NCBI GenBank assembly: GCA_029945195.1 | Contig: GCA_029945195.1_4117.1 | DNA from: a phage | Length of the DNA: 64,000 bases | Reading direction: 5' to 3' (one strand) | Notes under the pieces: generated by a model | Database searches by the model: none | What the model saw: the letters and a program-made list of their open reading frames with translations, nothing else | What the model was told of the DNA's origin: nothing | In this document: piece after piece, positions 3,257 through 46,646 of the stretch | Layout of the letters: each line of letters begins with the position of its first letter | Position numbering within the stretch: position 1 is the stretch's first letter | Program-made: the position numbers and the translations under genes

Positions 3257-5986
3257 ATGTCATCAAAACGAATTATAGGAAGTGCCGAGATCCTTGGGAA
3301 CTTGGCAATTGGACAAAGGTACGCTATGCGTACTTTTAATGGAACCTCACCGAATGCCAATACTGGAATTGTTCAATATCCAATATATAAGCGTTCAGAA
3401 GTTCAAAGTATTTTAGATATGTTGCCTATATCACGTGTAGGAGAAATGGATTACTTACCATTAAACGTAAGTGGGTCGTATGAAGGTGCTACACCTATGT
3501 CAAGTGACCAAGTAGTTCAGCCAACAATTATTGAAGATGATGGAACCGCCGTTGTTCTGCGTAGCGGAACCAATGGTAGTACTAAAGGTTTTTATTATTC
3601 ATTTATACGAGAACTCCGAAATATAACTATGATTTCACAAGAAAGTGTTATTTCAACCAATTCAATGTATAAACCTTCAATTATGAGTAGTACTGAAAAT
3701 ATTAAGTATTTTATTGGCTCTAATGGTTATGAGATGCTTGGATGTTTAAGTACTGAAGATAATTATATTTTTACTATAACCAATGGCACATTTAACGAAA
3801 TATCACATATTCATGCTAAAGTGCCAAGTACTTCTTTTGGTAATGATATGCCAATATATACACATATTGTTGGGACAAAGGTTTATATTTGGTGTAAAGA
3901 TAAAAGTGTTTCTAATTTAGGATTAGCACTTTCAATTTATACAGTAGAGCTAAGTGATGTGAAAGCAAGCTCAATGGAATCATTAACAAAAGTTACTGGG
4001 TTATCAGGTCAAACTGTTCGAAACACAAGTTATTCTGCATCTAATAACATAAGAGTGTTCGATAAATTATATAGTGTTGGTACTAGCTCGGATTCATTAT
4101 TCGAAGTTACATCACCAGTATCACGTGTAGAATTTTCAGACTATACAGACTTTAACATTCAAGCCAACGTTAGTCCTGATTTATCAAAAATACGTGTAAC
4201 TTTATATCCAACACATCGAATGGTTACACCTTTGTATATTTCAACAGTTTATGGTACTGGAATAAGTTTTGTTTATAATATAAACTCAAAATCTATGTCA
4301 CTAGATGGTAGTGCTCGTGCACCTGCAACTGTTTCATATAATAATGGATTTCAAGTTTCTAACCCATTTGAAATTAATATGGTCAACTTCACAGGGACAA
4401 CTGCTGCTGGTGTATTAGGAAACGCAGGTGGTTTATGTCAAACTAAAGATGGTTTGGTATTTGCATCTAAATTTAGATGGAGTTCAACTGAATTTTATGG
4501 TCTACAACGATATAAGGTTAGTGGTACACCGTTTGATTCATGGGTTGCCAGTACTAGAACCGCAAGTAACGTTATAAATGCAAACGTTTTACCAGTTTTT
4601 GGTAGTGCTGTTGGTGCAAACCTTTTAGGTGTACGTTTCATCGATAATAGAAAAATATTATTAGCATGTTCTGGTACGTATGATGATGTAACATATAATT
4701 ATAATAATACTGTTTTTTCTGAAATAGGTTCACAACCAACATATCAATATAACTCAGTTCAAAATAATACTACATTAAATGGTTTTGCACCACAATCTAA
4801 TCGTAAACAAATAGGCGATGATTTTACATACACTGCTATGATTTCTCTTGTTGATACCGATGGTAGTGTTAGATGCTATGGAACATCATTCATTGAAGGT
4901 GTATATAAAACAAGTGGTGGATTATTAAACCCAGATACTTTAGAATTTGATGAAACATATACAATAGAACCAACGGTATTAGAATCATTAAAACAAGATA
5001 TTTTTGCTAATATAGGAAACTCTGGCATTGTTGGCACACTATCTGGACAAATTGTATTATATTATGTACCTGATAATACTTTTTCTAAATCCATCGCAGT
5101 AGTTTCAGCATATAATCTTAACAATAACCAAGGTTATGCAATCTATGCCGAAGTTGATGTTGTATTATCTGGAACTAACATAACTTCAGCTACATTGGTG
5201 AGTACTAGATATGAGACACTTAGTTCTGTTACAGGAATTATTACTGAAGCATATATGAAACGTTGTACTGGTCTAACAGTTGCAAAATATTCAGGATTTG
5301 GTTACATTGGTGTTGATGCTGTTCATCAATTTTCACAACCAGGTAATGCACAATTTAAGATGATGATAGCTAAAACAGTAGATGGTGTCATAACATCAAA
5401 TCGTTTTTTATCATCTAGTTACATCCAACTTGGTGCAGCATATCAACATGGTGTTATTCCTGGTGTTGGTTTTGGATATTACAATTTTCAAGATTCTGAC
5501 TATCAAACCAAATCTGTATTCAGCGTTTTTGGTACAACATCTGCTGAAATGGATGGTTTAATTAGTGGAAATGGTAGCGTTAAAGAAAAGATTGTGGTAG
5601 TATCACAAGACGTTGCACAAGGATTCTCAGTGTACTTTACACGTGAAGTTCCGGTGTTTTTAGGTGGAATTTTCGACAGACTACCTATACAAAGTGTTGA
5701 TTTAAGTACTGTAAAAAGTAACCCAGCTAATACTACGTTCTATTTGTATATACAAATGAACAGGAATACTAAGAAAGCGTCATATGTTATTAGTACTGAA
5801 ACAATTGATGAATCTTTAACTAGCACTTACATTGGTAAGATAGTTACTGGAACTTCAGGAATAACTTCAATTGATACAGAAAAAGTAACTCGTTTTTTGA
5901 CATATCGTCCAAGTACAACGAAACGTGGTTCAGCGATACCTGCCAGTACTGGTGTACCATCAGGTCCAGGTACACGTTGGAAATAA
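3257..5986 (+). CDS. Large hypothetical protein, family A paralog
   Basis: ATG at 3257 preceded by AAGGAAAAG; the track start at 3167 lies inside the upstream gene; conserved N-terminal (LPIS..YLP..VSG, VVLRSGTNGS) and C-terminal modules. Confidence 0.7.
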   Translation: MSSKRIIGSAEILGNLAIGQRYAMRTFNGTSPNANTGIVQYPIYKRSEVQSILDMLPISRVGEMDYLPLNVSGSYEGATPMSSDQVVQPTIIEDDGTAVVLRSGTNGSTKGFYYSFIRELRNITMISQESVISTNSMYKPSIMSSTENIKYFIGSNGYEMLGCLSTEDNYIFTITNGTFNEISHIHAKVPSTSFGNDMPIYTHIVGTKVYIWCKDKSVSNLGLALSIYTVELSDVKASSMESLTKVTGLSGQTVRNTSYSASNNIRVFDKLYSVGTSSDSLFEVTSPVSRVEFSDYTDFNIQANVSPDLSKIRVTLYPTHRMVTPLYISTVYGTGISFVYNINSKSMSLDGSARAPATVSYNNGFQVSNPFEINMVNFTGTTAAGVLGNAGGLCQTKDGLVFASKFRWSSTEFYGLQRYKVSGTPFDSWVASTRTASNVINANVLPVFGSAVGANLLGVRFIDNRKILLACSGTYDDVTYNYNNTVFSEIGSQPTYQYNSVQNNTTLNGFAPQSNRKQIGDDFTYTAMISLVDTDGSVRCYGTSFIEGVYKTSGGLLNPDTLEFDETYTIEPTVLESLKQDIFANIGNSGIVGTLSGQIVLYYVPDNTFSKSIAVVSAYNLNNNQGYAIYAEVDVVLSGTNITSATLVSTRYETLSSVTGIITEAYMKRCTGLTVAKYSGFGYIGVDAVHQFSQPGNAQFKMMIAKTVDGVITSNRFLSSSYIQLGAAYQHGVIPGVGFGYYNFQDSDYQTKSVFSVFGTTSAEMDGLISGNGSVKEKIVVVSQDVAQGFSVYFTREVPVFLGGIFDRLPIQSVDLSTVKSNPANTTFYLYIQMNRNTKKASYVISTETIDESLTSTYIGKIVTGTSGITSIDTEKVTRFLTYRPSTTKRGSAIPASTGVPSGPGTRWK

Positions 5987-8058: not shown

Positions 8059-10325
8059 ATAACCAATATGTTGAACAAACAATAGTGAAACACTTGGCTG
8101 GGTCACAAGCCTACGGAACCAGTACACCTGAAAGTGATACTGATTATCGTGGTATTTTTCTTGCTAATAAAGAATTTATTCTTACGCCATTCTATAAGGT
8201 CAAAGAAGTAGCTGATAAAAATGAAGAAGATACTAAATTCTATGAGTTAAATCAGTATTTAAAATTATACACTGAAGCCAACCCTAATATATTGGAATCA
8301 CTATGGGTCGAACCAGAACACATTGTAGAAAGTACTGAGATTTATGACTATCTTCGTTCATTTAACCAAAAACTTCTTAGTTCCAAGATTGCATTTTCAT
8401 ACACTGGATATGCATATAATCAGATTAAGCGTATGACAAATCATCACGGTTGGATGGATAAAGAGCGTATTGCTGAAAAACGATTAAATGAGATTTTAGA
8501 AGAACACCCTGTCGATGAGGTTCTTGCGTGGATGTATGATTCATTCCCACAGTATCTTGTTGAACGTTTAGATACATCCAACTTACATCCATTTAATGCT
8601 AAAAAGATTGATTTTGAAAAATATATGCGTGATACGTCATTGCAGTTAGTTTCGAAAAATCCATTAAAGCAATATCATTTTGTAAGATTAGTGCATAACT
8701 ACACTACTGAAAAAATTCTTGATCGTGATTTCAATTTATTGAATTTTAATAATGGTTATGAACTAATTCATTACGGAGAAAACATTTTTGCGATTATTAA
8801 AAATCCGAATGAAAGCACTATCAACGGTGATGGATCATTGCGTTATTTTTCTAAAGAGCGTAGTACTGAAGAGTTGAAAACTAAACCAGAACTAATTGTC
8901 AAATTTAACGAAAAAGAATATCAGGAAAATAGTGAGAATAGGAAAAGTTATCATAAATGGAAAGAAAATCGTAATGCCAAACGTGCTATTTTAGAATCAC
9001 AACACGGATACGACTGTTATAGTTTTGATACTGAATTCTTAACTAAAGATGGTTGGAAATTATTTGACGACATCACTGATAAAGATCTATTAGCGACTTT
9101 TGATAAAAATCACAAAATAGAGTATCAAAAATACACAGAACGTTTTGATAATTTATACAATGGAAATCTTTACCATTTCACTGGTCATCACCAAGATACG
9201 TTAGTGACTGCAAATCACAGAATGTATGTTAAGAATTATGCACGTAATCAGCAAAAAGATATGTCAGAATGGCAATTTGTTGAAGCAGCACAATTAAAAG
9301 AAACTTATAAAATTTTGAATACATTATCTCCAATAACAAAGGAATATAAAGATAAAAAAAGCCCAATTGACTATATGGATATCAAAGTTTATCTTCAACT
9401 GATGGGATGGTTTCTTTCAGATGGTAGTATAAGTTTTAGAGATGGAAAAGTAAAATCATTATACATTTCACAATCAAAAGCCAGTCCTGGTATGCGTTGT
9501 GCTTTATCAAAATACAAACAATCTGGACAAATGATATTTCAGGAATACATTAACGAAAGAAAAGATTACCAATCAAATGATGAATCAAGATTTGTATTTC
9601 CACGTGAAGTGGCTGAAGCATTATATAATGATTGTGGGCATGGATCATATAATAAAAGAATTCCAAATTGGGCATTTGATTTAACAAAACGAAAAATGGA
9701 TTTTCTGCTAAAAGGTTTGTTGCAAGGTGATGGTACAAAACGTAATTTGGTCAATCATGATGACACATATGTATATTATACTGCTAATTCATTATTAGCT
9801 GATGATGTTCAAAAACTAGCATTACTGTGCGGTTATGAAACATCGAAATGGGGACCATACACAAACGAAACTAATTTTGGTTATATTGAAATGTATCAAG
9901 TTCATATCAATATGAAACCTAAATCAGAAAAAATAAACATGAAACAAAATCTTGAAAAAATTCCAGTAACTAACTACAGAACTGTTTGTTTTTCAGTTCC
10001 GAACGGTACACTGGTTACTCGTAGAAATGGTAAAACTGCATTACATGGAAACTGTAAACATGCTATGCACACAATCCGACTTTTGAATAGTGCAGAAGAA
10101 GCATTACAAAGTGGAATTATTCAAGTTAAACGACCAGATGCACAAATGTTGATGGATATTCGTAATGGTAAATGGAAGTATGAAGAAGTCTTAGAATATT
10201 TCGATGATAAAGTACAATACATTCGTGATGTTCTATATAAGAAATCAGTACTTCCTAAAAAACCAAACATCAAGTTAGCATCAAAAATTATCATTGATAT
10301 TAGAGAAATGCAATGGTATAAGTAA
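8055..10325 (+). CDS. Pol-beta-superfamily nucleotidyltransferase (RNA-repair-type) interrupted by an intein
   Basis: N-terminal GSQAYGTSTPESDTDYRGIF matches the GS...SD.D nucleotidyltransferase motif; an internal ~346-aa insert carries intein and LAGLIDADG blocks. Confidence 0.7.
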   Translation: MNNQYVEQTIVKHLAGSQAYGTSTPESDTDYRGIFLANKEFILTPFYKVKEVADKNEEDTKFYELNQYLKLYTEANPNILESLWVEPEHIVESTEIYDYLRSFNQKLLSSKIAFSYTGYAYNQIKRMTNHHGWMDKERIAEKRLNEILEEHPVDEVLAWMYDSFPQYLVERLDTSNLHPFNAKKIDFEKYMRDTSLQLVSKNPLKQYHFVRLVHNYTTEKILDRDFNLLNFNNGYELIHYGENIFAIIKNPNESTINGDGSLRYFSKERSTEELKTKPELIVKFNEKEYQENSENRKSYHKWKENRNAKRAILESQHGYDCYSFDTEFLTKDGWKLFDDITDKDLLATFDKNHKIEYQKYTERFDNLYNGNLYHFTGHHQDTLVTANHRMYVKNYARNQQKDMSEWQFVEAAQLKETYKILNTLSPITKEYKDKKSPIDYMDIKVYLQLMGWFLSDGSISFRDGKVKSLYISQSKASPGMRCALSKYKQSGQMIFQEYINERKDYQSNDESRFVFPREVAEALYNDCGHGSYNKRIPNWAFDLTKRKMDFLLKGLLQGDGTKRNLVNHDDTYVYYTANSLLADDVQKLALLCGYETSKWGPYTNETNFGYIEMYQVHINMKPKSEKINMKQNLEKIPVTNYRTVCFSVPNGTLVTRRNGKTALHGNCKHAMHTIRLLNSAEEALQSGIIQVKRPDAQMLMDIRNGKWKYEEVLEYFDDKVQYIRDVLYKKSVLPKKPNIKLASKIIIDIREMQWYK
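9015..10052 (+). mobile_element. Intein with LAGLIDADG homing-endonuclease domain (boundaries approximate)
   Basis: Begins at Cys (CYSFDTEFLTKDGW, block A); TANH (block B); two LAGLIDADG-like motifs LMGWFLSDGSI and LLKGLLQGDGT; C-terminal ...VCFSVPNGTLV...ALHGN followed by Cys +1. Confidence 0.65.
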
Positions 10326-14743: not shown

Positions 14744-15048
14744 AAAAATTATTAGTTCCAATGATTTCTTTTTTAATTATAAGTGGGTGTGCCGAGCAAG
14801 TAAAACTACAATCCCCCGCACCAATTAAACAAGAAATTCTGTTAGAAAGATGTGATGATGATACACCTCTACCACAAAAAATTATGATTGACAAAAATGG
14901 TTTTAAAGGTTATGATGGTGCAGAAATTCTTAAAGTACTTACTCGTTGGGATGCAGTCTACAATGAATGTGCTTTAAAACACGACGCATTGATTAAAACT
15001 ATTCGTGATTTACAAGGTAAAGATATTAAAATCAATATCAAGGAATAA
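14740..15048 (+). CDS. Outer-membrane lipoprotein spanin (Rz1-like)
   Basis: Signal peptide with lipobox MKKLLVPMISFLIISGC; small size; start overlaps the upstream gene end. Confidence 0.55.
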   Translation: MKKLLVPMISFLIISGCAEQVKLQSPAPIKQEILLERCDDDTPLPQKIMIDKNGFKGYDGAEILKVLTRWDAVYNECALKHDALIKTIRDLQGKDIKINIKE

Positions 15049-15049
15049 A

Positions 15050-15661
15050 ATGAACAAATATCATGTTTACTATACGACAAAATTATCACTTCTTGACGAA
15101 TTAAATCAACGAAGTACTAAGATGAAACGCTACACTTTAAATGGTATTACTTTTCGATATTTCCCACAAAAAGTTCTTACTTTTGTTAAGAATCCAAAAT
15201 GCGTGGCATGTGGGATTGAAGCTACTGAAGTACGCATTGAACGTTCATTATGTTCTGATCCAGTATATGGTAAACCACATTTAAATGTATATGCTGTATG
15301 TGGTCTTTATGAAGTTTTAATGACAGTTGACCATAATCATCTGGCATCTAAGGGTGGACCTGATTTAGAGTCAAACTTTAATACTATGTGCTCCAGATGT
15401 AATCAACTACGTTCGAATAAAACTGAAACAGTTGATGAGTTTCTTGAGAAAGTTAAAGGTCGTAATCTTCTCCAAGAACATATGAATAATTTCTTTAATG
15501 TACAAAAAAAGAAAAATAACATTGACAAGTCGAAACTACTAGAAGAACGTAGGTTACGTCAAGAATTATGGGAAACCGATCATCTATGGCATGTTCGAGA
15601 GTTTGGTCGTCATATGAAAGCTTTGAAAAAAGAACAGAAGAAATTGAATAAACATGATTGA
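15050..15661 (+). CDS. HNH homing endonuclease
   Basis: CxxC zinc-finger pair and HNH core (VDHNHLASKGG...N...CSRCNQL); ATG at 15050 preceded by AAGGA; the track start at 15005 overlaps the upstream gene. Confidence 0.7.
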   Translation: MNKYHVYYTTKLSLLDELNQRSTKMKRYTLNGITFRYFPQKVLTFVKNPKCVACGIEATEVRIERSLCSDPVYGKPHLNVYAVCGLYEVLMTVDHNHLASKGGPDLESNFNTMCSRCNQLRSNKTETVDEFLEKVKGRNLLQEHMNNFFNVQKKKNNIDKSKLLEERRLRQELWETDHLWHVREFGRHMKALKKEQKKLNKHD

Positions 15662-15713: not shown

Positions 15714-16070
15714 ATGAAATCTAAAATCTTTTTACCACAATTAATGTGGCATCTAGCAGAGTTAGATGAAAATGATGAATATACTGACTATGGTGCATGG
15801 GATGACAGTACTGAAACTTTTAAACCAGATGTAAAATATAAAATCATCTGCAATGAAAGCAAAGGGCACAGAAGGTGGACTGAAGAATTTGATCTCGTAT
15901 TTCTTGACATGAGCACAAATAAGTTTTATCATTGTACTTATGAACGAGGTTTAACAGAAGATAGACCAGTACAACCATTCAGTACTGAAACTGATGGTGT
16001 TAAGTGCAATGAAGTTTCTGTTACCAGAGAAGAAATTATCACTTATCGAACTTTGTGGAAATATTTGTAA
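15714..16070 (+). CDS. Hypothetical protein
   Basis: GGAG SD, ATG start. Confidence 0.55.
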   Translation: MKSKIFLPQLMWHLAELDENDEYTDYGAWDDSTETFKPDVKYKIICNESKGHRRWTEEFDLVFLDMSTNKFYHCTYERGLTEDRPVQPFSTETDGVKCNEVSVTREEIITYRTLWKYL

Positions 16071-16071
16071 A

Positions 16072-16470
16072 ATGCTTAAAGAATTAGATTTTTCAAACTT
16101 AGAAATTATCAGTGCTGTAAAAAACATTTCCGATATGGGAGATGAGAAAGCAGTTCTTGTTACTATTACTTTTGTAAAAGAAAAAGATAGCTATAGCCAT
16201 TTAACTGGCATTGAAGAACTAATTCATAAAACCAATCTTGAGAATGATGGTAAACTCATCAAGCTTCAGGCTTCCTATACGCAAAAAACGTCAAATTTTA
16301 TAGACCTAAATAATGTAGTCAAGGTGGTATACAATCATCCTGAACACACATATAGGAACACGACAAGAAATGAAAATGTTGCTAACGATTCGAATATTAT
16401 CGAAGATGTTGAATTCATAAACACAATTTTTGATCGTTGTTCTAAGGATTTAAAAAAAGTATACATGTAA
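16072..16470 (+). CDS. Hypothetical protein
   Basis: ATG 2 nt after upstream stop; the track start at 15994 overlaps the upstream gene. Confidence 0.5.
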   Translation: MLKELDFSNLEIISAVKNISDMGDEKAVLVTITFVKEKDSYSHLTGIEELIHKTNLENDGKLIKLQASYTQKTSNFIDLNNVVKVVYNHPEHTYRNTTRNENVANDSNIIEDVEFINTIFDRCSKDLKKVYM

Positions 16471-16490
16471 TGGGACATTATATGTTCCAA

Positions 16491-16499
16491 TGATATAAT
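16491..16499 (+). promoter_or_regulatory. Extended -10 promoter element TGATATAAT
   Basis: Same 9-mer recurs at 27590, 31191, 43534 and 46603 in intergenic positions. Confidence 0.4.
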
Positions 16500-16770
16500 G
16501 TATATAGAAAATGACAACGGACATTGAAAAATGGACACTGAGAACCTACTTCTCTTGAAAATGTAAAGGATAGATGAGCTTTACCGTTGTAGCGAACAGC
16601 AGAAGAAACCTGTTAGAGTACTGGCATTCAAACAAACACGATGTAAGACCACGAATCACGGCGACACGGCTGTATAAAGAACTCCGATAAGCATACAGAG
16701 AGTTCCTAGATAGATGTATAAGGTTCGCACCTTACCAGATTTGCTAAGGGAGTTCAAGGATAGCGGACGC

Positions 16771-16806
16771 AATTTTTACAAGAAAGTTGCGTCCAAAATT
16801 TGAGAA
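16771..16806 (+). repeat. Direct repeat copy A (AATTTTTACAAGAAAGTTGCGTCCAAAATTTGAGAA)
   Basis: About 85% identical to copy B; the flanking GGACGCAA...TTGCGTCC is a perfect 8-bp inverted repeat. Confidence 0.6.
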
Positions 16807-16920
16807 CAAGTACTACTTTGATCGAATAGAGTTAGTACTGAGTGCTGTTGATGAAAAGACCAGCGACCGTTGCATATGACTGCGATAGAGAGAAACCGAG
16901 CAACCCGCTTTCGCTCTCTA

Positions 16921-16958
16921 AATTTTGGTACAAGAAAGATCCGTCCAAAATTTGAGAA
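16921..16958 (+). repeat. Direct repeat copy B (AATTTTGGTACAAGAAAGATCCGTCCAAAATTTGAGAA)
   Basis: Second copy about 150 nt downstream; can pair as AAATTTTGG...CCAAAATTT. Confidence 0.6.
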
Positions 16959-16995
16959 ATTCGCAATTCGATAATATCCGATGCCATCATCGTCA

Positions 16996-17020
16996 AGAGA
17001 GACTTAATTGTCTCTTTTTT
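16996..17020 (+). terminator. Rho-independent terminator
   Basis: Stem AGAGAC/GTCTCT with loop TTAATT, then T6. Confidence 0.55.
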
Positions 17021-17160
17021 ATTACCTTCATTCCCCTGCGGGGGGATGTAATAGTCCTCAACAAATCCCGTCAAGTTTTTAAAGTACATTATCATTTTCA
17101 GAAGGAACTAGTTTACGAAGTAAACGCAGTGACTTCTTGAGTTACGAGAGAACGAAGTGA

Positions 17161-17589
17161 ATGAGTAACACAACGAAAATATCCGATAAATCCGAATTAA
17201 CACAAATGTTATTCAAAGAATATTTTGAGTTTCAGATAAAAGACGAACATCAATTACCACAGCAATATTTGAAAAGAATTAAAGATCCGTCAGTAATTAC
17301 TAAAGAAACTAATTTTTATAATAGTATTTTGGATTTCGTTAAATCAGTTCATACAACAAGACCTATTGTAGTTTTGTTTTTTGATAAATCTATTCCTTTA
17401 GTAGTTCCTGAAAATGTATTTTTTATTTCAGAAACTGATTTAAATAATCAAAGTACTGTAAGTAGATTAAGAAATTGCTTACTTGTAGTATGTGATTCTT
17501 CTTTGTATAATAACAGAATACTATGGGATAGAAGTAAACGCAATGCAGTTTCTGAAATGAATCCTGAAATTACCTTTATTATTAACTAA
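17161..17589 (+). CDS. Hypothetical protein
   Basis: ATG-initiated ORF in the gene array. Confidence 0.5.
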   Translation: MSNTTKISDKSELTQMLFKEYFEFQIKDEHQLPQQYLKRIKDPSVITKETNFYNSILDFVKSVHTTRPIVVLFFDKSIPLVVPENVFFISETDLNNQSTVSRLRNCLLVVCDSSLYNNRILWDRSKRNAVSEMNPEITFIIN

Positions 17590-46579: not shown

Positions 46580-46602
46580 TAAGTGGGACAACTTATAAAA
46601 AT

Positions 46603-46611
46603 ATGATATAA
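46603..46611 (+). promoter_or_regulatory. Extended -10 promoter element TGATATAAT
   Basis: Recurrent 9-mer after the terminator. Confidence 0.35.
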
Positions 46612-46646
46612 TAGTTAATGTACCAATATACATGGAGAGTATTAAA

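Follow-up and report, generated by a model that had tools for sequence, protein, structure and literature searches.

What occupies the roughly 690 bp between two protein genes at positions 16471–17160 of the 64,000-nucleotide (nt) stretch of phage DNA analysed here (hereafter the window)? An initial annotation, made from the letters alone, had taken this gap for a separately transcribed structured-RNA locus or, alternatively, a replication or packaging element, and not for the remains of a gene. Our analysis indicates that the interval 16472–17073 on the + strand is probably a self-contained gene for a large structured non-coding RNA, which would act in trans through a pocket that binds a partner or catalyses a reaction. 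Covariation, the absence of a reading frame and the presence of a predicted promoter and terminator of its own at conserved loci all support the structured-RNA unit first proposed. The family appears to be conserved across Rak2-like jumbo phages, the window RNA being one of four ancient paralogues. The window itself comes from an Asteriusvirus jumbo phage of the PBECO4/121Q group, 99–100% identical to SP27, phAPEC6, PBECO4 relatives and EC22.5-2 by megablast and blastn, and its position 16401 falls at 143252 in OR845138.1.

The gap extends from the TAA codon that closes the upstream gene (16468–16470) to the ATG codon of the downstream gene at 17161. As first described, it holds no convincing open reading frame (ORF): the + strand carries ORFs of 29–38 aa and one TTG-initiated ORF of 71 aa, the − strand one of 87 aa, and the two that were tested, of 87 and 71 aa, matched no Pfam or PHROG family. 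The G/C enrichment reported for the gap is equally real, with a G+C content of 0.405–0.425 in 200-nt segments starting at 16500–16800 compared with about 0.25–0.33 in the flanks. Blastn searches with the interval located a core of ~460–540 nt in 61–72 jumbo-phage records, at 4–5 places in each. Among 29 of these copies, variability by position modulo 3 is flat (0.174/0.180/0.194); gap runs whose lengths leave a remainder of 1, 2 or 0 on division by three number 514, 149 and 43, respectively, 663 of the 706 (94%) thus not being multiples of three; and the longest stop-free stretches, 37–130 aa, lie at positions inconsistent from copy to copy. With neither codon periodicity nor a conserved reading frame, the view that the locus is not a decayed gene is borne out. 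Hypothetical proteins have been annotated over the RNA on either strand in several records (121Q_516, G17_00407, g347 and g348 of fHe-Yen9-04, gp305–308 of K64-1); such ORFs annotated over the RNA gene are almost certainly spurious.

What the sequence conserves instead of a protein was examined by comparative analysis. A set of 55 hits was reduced to 31 sequences below 96% identity and scanned for covarying antiparallel column runs. An independent alignment, made with MAFFT from 29 complete non-redundant copies, served to test the resulting structure model against controls in which the 3′ partners were slid by 1–3 columns. The 98 proposed pairs were paired in 91.8% of cases versus 39–44% in the slid controls. 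Changes on both sides were seen at 54 pairs, compared with 14–25 in the slid controls and 35.5 in shuffles (none of the 500 shuffles scored as high), and the covariation score reached 0.339 versus 0.04–0.07. The compensatory changes by which the initial annotation proposed to recognize a structured RNA are therefore present. Because the fold of the single sequence is only moderately unusual relative to shuffles (z = −3.0), the case rests on these comparative data. Three conserved G·U pairs (GU in 29 of 29 copies, UG in 28 of 29 and UG in 25 of 29) would be A·C mismatches on the opposite strand, which identifies the + strand as the functional one, a conclusion that fits the promoter and U-run described below. 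Taken together, a + strand fold of at least 15 helices and three pseudoknots is strongly supported by the alignment.

The constrained core of this fold comprises 16546–16751 and 16865–16995. At its 5′ end, pseudoknot 0 (PK0, region 16514–16593) would join 16514–16521 to 16583–16590, the 3′ side being the loop of hairpin Px (16578–16580/16591–16593), and would enclose a variable hairpin, P1a (16522–16534), together with P2 (16546–16556/16566–16578, loop GAAAAUGUA). In the covariation test, 93.9% of PK0 cells were paired versus 21–39% after sliding, 9 of 11 pairs changed on both sides, and the middle Px pair is CG in 12 copies, UA in 10 and AU in 7. There follows the region 16596–16673, in which P3 (16596–16600/16669–16673), 100% paired with AU/UA, GC/CG and UA/AU swaps, encloses P4 (16610–16613/16658–16661); the invariant strands AGAAGAAACC and CAAUGCGGC belong to this region. 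A lineage-specific 38-nt insertion (16618–16655) caps P4 in the window copy; one lineage has UUCG in its place, and the Klebsiella phage K64-1 has GAAA. Since the UUCG/GAAA-capped members lack UUAG altogether, a candidate long-range pairing between CCCGUUAG and CUAAGGG was rejected; CCCG pairs locally in P4. The P5 hairpin, GAACUCC...GAGAGUUC (16679–16705, helix 6), shows compensatory changes in all 7 of its pairs. The columns of 16706–16751 are largely invariant and hold the near-invariant junction CUAGAUAGAUGUAUAAGG, the short P6 hairpin (16719–16722/16731–16734, helix 7), whose inner pairs change from AU to GC, and the invariant single strand GCUAAGGGAG.

Covariation likewise supports the 3′ half. 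The 11-bp hairpin P8 (16809–16819/16828–16839, spanning 16809–16839) presents a 7-nt loop (16821–16827, AUCGAAU) that would pair with 16966–16972 (AUUCGAU) to form pseudoknot 1 (PK1). This pairing is kept in 99.5% of cases through five versions: UCGAA/UUCGA, UUGUA/UACAA, UUGCA/UGCAA, UCAUA/UAUGA and, in K64-1, CUUGAAU/AUUCAAG. The PK1 sequences vary by paralogue and are fixed among orthologues, AUUGUAU/AUACAAU being found in all orthologues of one paralogue (copy C, see below). The variable hairpin P9 (16842–16867) has covarying pairs in a part of the alignment that is poor. Between 16865 and 16972 lies the 3′ core, made up of the invariant CGACC, pseudoknot 2 (PK2), P10, P11, the invariant block GAUAGAGAGAAACCGAGCAACCCGCUUUCG and P13 (16914–16918/16954–16958). 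PK2 (GUUGC/GCAAC, 16869–16873/16900–16904) crosses both P10 (16881–16885/16961–16965) and P11 (16888–16892/16908–16912); it is 100% paired in three further compensatory versions (GUUAC/GUAAC, GUUGA/UCAAC and GUCAU/AUGAC). P10 is also 100% paired, with compensatory changes in 4 of 5 pairs. P11 is invariant across the 29 sequences and becomes GGACG/CGUUC in K64-1, an A-U to C-G swap that is the only compensatory change seen there. The P14 hairpin (GAUG/CGUC, 16980–16994, helix 15), part of the conserved block CCGAUG..CAUCGUCA, has U·G versus C-G in a ratio of 14:13. Single strands that are invariant throughout (GAAAAUGUAGA, AGAAGAAACC, CACGGCAAUGCGGC, GAUAGA-AUAUAAGG, GCUAAGGGAG, CGACC, GAUAGAGAGAAAC-GAGCAACCCGCUUUCG and AGAAAUUC) together amount to ~150 nt.

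The initial annotation had singled out two direct repeats, 16771–16806 and 16921–16958, as hairpins whose conservation pointed to selection on nucleotides rather than on a protein. They are 89.5% identical over 38 aligned positions, and each does sit in a hairpin. Selection at the RNA level is supported; the repeats are not its focus, and most of the constraint lies in other blocks. The first repeat belongs to a module at 16752–16806 with a hairpin at 16765–16772/16787–16794 (GGACGCAA/TTGCGTCC), a loop UUUUUACAAGAAAG and a following GUCCAAAAUUUGAGAA, which some family members have and others lack (alignment columns 285–345). The second, at 16919–16953, forms a stem at 16920–16928/16945–16953 (AAATTTTGG/CCAAAATTT) with the loop UACAAGAAAGAUCCGU, and is missing from about half of the copies (columns 468–505). 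In general terms, the module is a hairpin with the apical loop UACAAnnAAG and the 3′ strand GUCCAAAAUUUGAGA, inserted after GCUAAGGGAG or after CUUUCGYUCU, and a family member has none, one or two of them. The repeats are thus, as judged from the alignment, dispensable peripheral decorations and not the core of the fold. A type III toxin–antitoxin RNA (ToxI-like) was considered and rejected, as there are only two repeats, 150 nt apart, lying in different stems of a larger fold; Pfam and PHROG matching of the neighbouring genes found no toxin gene adjoining the RNA.

The predicted transcription unit starts from a promoter at 16472–16499, in which GGGACA (16472–16477) is followed by a 16-nt spacer and the extended −10 element TGATATAAT (16491–16499). 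Only the −10 element had been recognized initially; it holds, and the GGGACA upstream is added here. Transcription is predicted to begin near 16506 and would yield a primary transcript of ~515 nt forming the structured body (16506–17021); the nhmmer profile of the family matches 16537–17080, and a covariance model built for the 5′ domain only matches 16541–16737 at 162 bits, the sole copy in the window. The promoter-like motif GGGAC(A/G)...(TG)ATATAAT occurs 4 times in the window versus 0.28 expected by chance, always on the + strand (885–916, 16472–16499, 27571–27598 and 46585–46612), and probably represents a phage promoter class whose −35 element is unlike the reported TGAAACG type of CBB and GAP32. 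Most family members are preceded by the same type of promoter (GGGAC/GGGAT...TGnTATAAT). The GAP32/CBB-type copies have TGAAACG...TGGTATAAT instead, the ‘divergent RpoD-like’ promoter described for CBB.

At the other end, the hairpin that had been proposed as a terminator is present at 16996–17021 (helix 17): a stem AGAGAC/GTCTCT (16998–17003/17010–17015) followed by T6, with compensatory changes in all 5 pairs and a conserved T-run. A terminator scanning tool left the 16998–17015 hairpin uncalled on the + strand, although it covaries across homologues, and paralogues A and D (see below) lack it. The U-run near 17021 is the probable main 3′ end, and probably a leaky one. The same scan called a − strand hairpin at 16898–16916 (GAGCGAAAGCGGGTTGCTC) with a T-rich tail; this call was discarded, as it simply reads the invariant PK2/P11 core from the other strand and is no separate feature. 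Beyond the U-run, the second G/C hairpin noticed at about 17034–17044 exists but is larger than first described: P15 (helix 18) has a 10-bp stem (17027–17036/17041–17050), is 95.8% paired and, with its conserved tail AUGUAAUAGUCCUCAACAAAUCCCGUCA, covers 17027–17073. P15 and the tail (...CCUCAACAAAUCYCGUCA, to 17073) are conserved as strongly as the core and kept in all paralogues, in K64-1 and in a bacterial copy described below, and 25 of the 29 sequences keep one U·G pair of P15 that pairs on the + strand only; P15 must therefore be part of at least some transcripts. Accordingly, the terminator hairpin is not the limit of the unit, as had been assumed, since conservation runs to 17073 and, more weakly, to 17160.

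This weaker conservation defines a 3′ flank (17074–17160, + strand), an AT-rich spacer with hairpins and AACGAA motifs that is shared across paralogues and genera. The spacer contains a late-promoter-like TTTAAAGTAC (motif TAAAGTAC/TATAAAT). Two hairpins covary: GTTTAC-GAA-GTAAAC at 17111–17125 and, at 17136–17157, one with a conserved internal purine mismatch that abuts the start of the next gene (ATG at 17161). In the 190 nt after P15, AACGAA occurs 36 times versus 2.4 expected (~15-fold), and its reverse complement once. At loci with no same-strand downstream gene, the flank terminates at a bidirectional terminator; where a same-strand gene follows, it stops 15–25 nt before the start codon. 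The flank may or may not belong to the RNA; it might instead encode a second small RNA or contribute to an origin.

The family extends well beyond the window. Its carriers are ~350-kb jumbo phages of Escherichia, Salmonella, Klebsiella, Cronobacter, Pectobacterium, Erwinia, Serratia, Yersinia and Xanthomonas, and members are found in Asteriusvirus, Mimasvirus, Eneladusvirus, Alcyoneusvirus (K64-1), related jumbo phages and metagenome contigs. When the profile from the first alignment was searched by nhmmer in OR845138.1, which is complete and unannotated, exactly four full-length copies were found, all on one strand: A (89999–90482), B (143388–143931, the window copy), C (223199–223674) and D (333263–333722). 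Using the 5′-domain covariance model, we detected a diverged copy in K64-1 (NC_027399.1, about 191420–191930; 49.8 bits, E about 1e-13), which lies directly after a sigma-factor gene and has the tiny ORFs gp305–308 annotated over it. The most conserved 26-mer, with 21 specified bases, was found in IMG/VR and the JGI metagenomes only in jumbo-phage contigs and fragments. A single match in Lewinella among 100,044 species-representative GTDB genomes was dismissed as chance, being confined to the motif, and a search of plasmids found no copy of the RNA.

The copies have different surroundings. Copy C lies on the + strand between the genes for endonuclease VII (−) and the baseplate hub (−) and ends at a bidirectional terminator; this order is kept in more than 12 genomes of different genera, in which the flanking proteins are only 52–83% identical. 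Copy D follows a sigma-70-like factor gene in Asteriusvirus, as does the copy of K64-1; the genes beside copies A and B and beside the GAP32-type locus are different and unrelated. Because the neighbours are unrelated and often on the opposite strand, the RNA is best regarded as an autonomous gene and not a leader. The paralogues are ancient. For the window copy, the upstream flanking gene (15994–16470) matches DUF7325/phrog_9016 and the downstream one (17161–17589) matches phrog_35272. Homing-endonuclease genes also occur in the vicinity: an HNH gene (phrog_23285) at 15005–15661 of the window lies a short distance upstream of copy B, a gene for a 323-aa homing-endonuclease-like protein (phrog_559/phrog_9084; OR845138.1 222061–223032) lies directly upstream of copy C, at a locus where E. 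coli phages carry an inserted homing-endonuclease gene beside endonuclease VII. With such genes near two of the four copies, a hyper-conserved RNA gene is possibly a good homing target.

A copy has also left the phages. Among 5,426 complete E. coli genomes searched by blastn, two chromosomes, from Ecuador and Bangladesh, hold an intact RNA copy (NZ_AP027515.1, E. coli LR-29-1, and NZ_CM130020.1), located at 8845–9492 of the examined LR-29-1 stretch. It scores 450 bits with nhmmer, has the promoter GGGAT...TGTGATATAAT, all conserved blocks, both modules, the terminator and P15, and, among phage copies, is closest to that of Serratia phage BF (copy-C type), at 80.6% identity. Its homology to the phage copies spans the promoter region to the P15 tail, which delimits the functional unit independently. 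The copy resides on an integrative island of ~10.7 kb between ffs and ybaA, together with genes for a tyrosine integrase (disrupted by IS3) and a serine recombinase. A DuOB/DUF488/mSLOG-DUF4326 operon on the same island corresponds to PDC-M45, a candidate defence system in PADLOC. The RNA is followed by ~700 nt that are free of genes and contain TATCGATCGTT repeats, and no recognisable replication or packaging genes were found among the island proteins. The only one of these proteins with a phage relative is the DUF4326 protein (41% identity over 109 aa); this relative is encoded at about 3505–3822 of the window (OR845138.1 130356–130673). Similarity between the island protein upstream of the RNA and the homing endonuclease of copy C was not significant, and a relationship between the two was rejected. 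The island copy shows the unit to be portable and self-contained, and raises the possibility of a role for the RNA in phage–host or phage–satellite conflict.

Does the RNA belong to a known class? No match at gathering thresholds was obtained in the whole window with the 4,227 covariance models of Rfam 15; at E values up to 10, the interval 16300–17300 gave only noise (small nucleolar and long non-coding RNA models, 13–22 bits), and six homologous loci shared no family. The covariance models of GOLLD, ROOL, OLE and raiA gave no match. ARAGORN found no transfer RNA (tRNA) or transfer-messenger RNA (tmRNA) gene in the window, and the seven tRNAs of the genome are at 317–321 kb, 12 kb from the nearest RNA copy. 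A group I or II intron was rejected, since the element lies between genes, has a promoter and a terminator of its own, matches no intron model and has opposite-strand flanks at a conserved locus. RNase P RNA was rejected as well: its models gave no match at E up to 10, and, compared with M1, the CR-like patches occur in the non-colinear order 1, 5, 4, 3, 2. A literature search found no description of this RNA; the unnamed members of a survey of 10,006 candidate viral RNAs mined from IMG/VR (PMC10690425) could include fragments of it. The element had been called a candidate novel RNA, and novelty holds: as far as these searches reach, the family is new, in no RNA database and no searchable paper.

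How such an RNA would work can be sketched. Host RNA polymerase would transcribe it from GGGACA-N16-TGATATAAT; most transcripts would stop at the U-run near 17021 and some would read into P15 and its tail. Acting in trans, the RNA would use its pseudoknotted core and invariant junction strands as a specific three-dimensional pocket or surface, which would bind a conserved phage or host partner, as a scaffold, decoy or sponge, or catalyse a reaction. The optional peripheral modules may tune or decorate the core, and the diverged paralogues with their own pseudoknot sequences may serve dosage and possibly separate specificities. We give a protein-binding scaffold or decoy slightly less than an even chance; a ribozyme is unlikely, and a self-assembling RNA-only particle is unlikely to the same degree. 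The loop–strand pairings of PK0 and PK1 could be intramolecular or intermolecular, as covariation looks alike in both cases. More speculatively, and doubtful as a whole, the RNA would represent a new triple-pseudoknotted class engaged in phage–host or satellite conflict, in which PK0 and PK1 act as ‘address’ pairings that drive self-assembly or partner capture and the island copy is a decoy, sensor or hijacking device, making it a ribozyme or an RNA-only or RNA–protein machine with no known counterpart.

Several points weigh against an RNA gene acting in trans or blur its outline. The covariation tests ignore phylogeny, which the slid controls retain, and no partner protein is consistently encoded beside the RNA. 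The conservation of P15, the tail and the 3′ flank beyond the terminator-like hairpin makes the predicted RNA ends uncertain; our literature search turned up no RNA-seq data on Asteriusvirus or related phages, the transcript and its 5′ and 3′ ends being predictions. As to mechanism, the present data do not separate a scaffold, a ribozyme and a self-assembling RNA. Finally, two features of the family would also suit a replication origin, namely its 4–5 dispersed, same-strand copies per ~350-kb genome, like the several origins of T4, and the succession of a promoter, a structured RNA, a U-run, a G6/C4 hairpin, a spacer of 70–90% A+T and strand-specific AACGAA motifs. Each copy would then produce a pre-primer comparable to ColE1 RNA II or T4 oriE/oriF; where the G/C hairpin and the AT-rich spacer lie, it would form a persistent RNA–DNA hybrid that primes the leading strand, with AACGAA serving as iterons. 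T4 has several origins, and its oriE is located in the baseplate region; the conserved locus beside baseplate-hub and recombination genes recalls this arrangement, and an origin on the island could let it replicate as a satellite. However, cumulative GC skew has no inflection at copies A, B and D and follows gene orientation, the island lacks recognisable replication or packaging genes, the G·U pair of P15 betrays selection on RNA and not on duplex DNA, and ~150 invariant nt with three pseudoknots across genera would seem to exceed the constraint on known primer RNAs. We therefore consider the origin model distinctly unlikely.

The remaining explanations fare worse. The crossing helices, reminiscent of ribozyme cores, the homing-endonuclease genes near two of the four copies and the horizontal transfer into a bacterial island could be read as traces of a mobile element, either an ORF-less group I/II intron or a sequence carried or targeted by a homing endonuclease, or else of a DNA-level packaging or recombination site. 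Yet each copy lies between genes, has a promoter of its own and is not flanked by exons; the copies match no Rfam intron, bear G·U pairs and compensatory changes that reflect selection on RNA, and occupy loci that are syntenic across genera, hence old and not recently mobile; homing endonucleases would moreover be expected to target any hyper-conserved sequence, leaving this origin of the locus very improbable. Still less probable is a long leader or processing cassette acting in cis to control or stabilise a downstream mRNA, through (anti)termination at the 17-kb hairpin or protection of its 5′ end. Such a role would account for a terminator-like hairpin between the structured part and the conserved 3′ flank, and for a flank that ends 15–25 nt before same-strand start codons, the 17136–17157 hairpin abutting the ATG at 17161 in the window, but the downstream genes differ between paralogues, the most conserved locus has opposite-strand genes with the unit ending in a bidirectional terminator, and the island copy is followed by ~700 nt devoid of genes. 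As for a decayed or very small protein-coding gene, the ORFs annotated over the region in many records and the 87-aa − strand ORF of the window speak for it; set against the lack of codon periodicity, the 94% of gap runs that break the frame, the unaligned stop-free stretches and the failure of the tested ORFs to match any Pfam or PHROG family, it is barely credible.

A large structured RNA acting in trans would matter for several reasons. New classes of large, highly conserved structured RNAs are rare, and RNase P, introns, tmRNA, OLE, GOLLD and ROOL each opened new biochemistry; ~150 invariant nt and three pseudoknots represent a level of constraint that usually marks catalysis or a dedicated RNA–protein machine. 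The phages concerned infect hosts such as E. coli, Salmonella, Klebsiella, Erwinia and Serratia, are culturable and under development for therapy, and have genomes that are more than 80% ‘hypothetical’. The locus is currently misannotated with spurious ORFs, and the alignment and structure suffice for a family model with which ~70 genomes could be re-annotated. Four paralogues at fixed loci and capture by an island offer genetic handles, with a hint of an RNA-level layer in phage–host conflict.

Known systems share individual features with the RNA. In the distantly related jumbo phage PA5oct, RNA-seq defined four ORF-free transcribed regions of 236–619 nt (PMC7318152). The 3′ end of one of them, ncRNA004, has a hairpin UUCCUUCCC-AAAC-GGGGAGGAA and a tail that resemble P15 (nhmmer E about 0.001 in a small search). 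As homologues, ncRNA001–004 were rejected, because nhmmer and the covariance model, also run with its filters off, gave nothing beyond this weak P15-like hairpin; a likeness by eye between ncRNA004 and the P2 region found support from neither. The phi29 pRNA is likewise a structured phage RNA that depends on the pairing of hairpin loops through covarying ‘address’ sequences, but it is 120–174 nt long, exists in one copy, folds differently and uses loop–loop pairing, whereas the pairing here is loop–strand and no Rfam model matches. ColE1 RNA II and T4 oriE/oriF/oriG resemble the locus in having a promoter-driven, structured RNA of ~0.5 kb followed by G/C-rich and AT-rich elements, and in their several copies or origins; unlike these primers, the present RNA is far more conserved and pseudoknotted, with no skew signal and no adjacent initiator gene. 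RNase P RNA, group I introns and the HDV-like and glmS ribozymes share with it crossing helices around invariant junctions, optional hairpins capped by tetraloops and comparable conservation. In contrast to these catalytic RNAs, it has no exons, splice sites or cleavage product, and its core order, PK2-P10-P11-PK2′-P11′-P13-P10′, is that of none of their folds.

Descriptively, the closest counterparts are the large ornate RNAs GOLLD, ROOL and OLE, although the RNA is a member of none of them. It does not match the Rfam models of GOLLD, ROOL, OLE or raiA, the hosts and phages differ, this family being confined to jumbo myophages of Enterobacterales, and it has 4–5 diverged paralogues per genome at fixed loci without a tRNA neighbourhood. 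Like all four, however, it is several hundred nt long, combines covarying helices with pseudoknots and invariant junctions, and stands alone with no known partner. GOLLD and ROOL are, in addition, associated with phages or prophages, as this RNA is, and GOLLD, ROOL and OLE form RNA-only multimers (10.1101/2024.12.08.627333).

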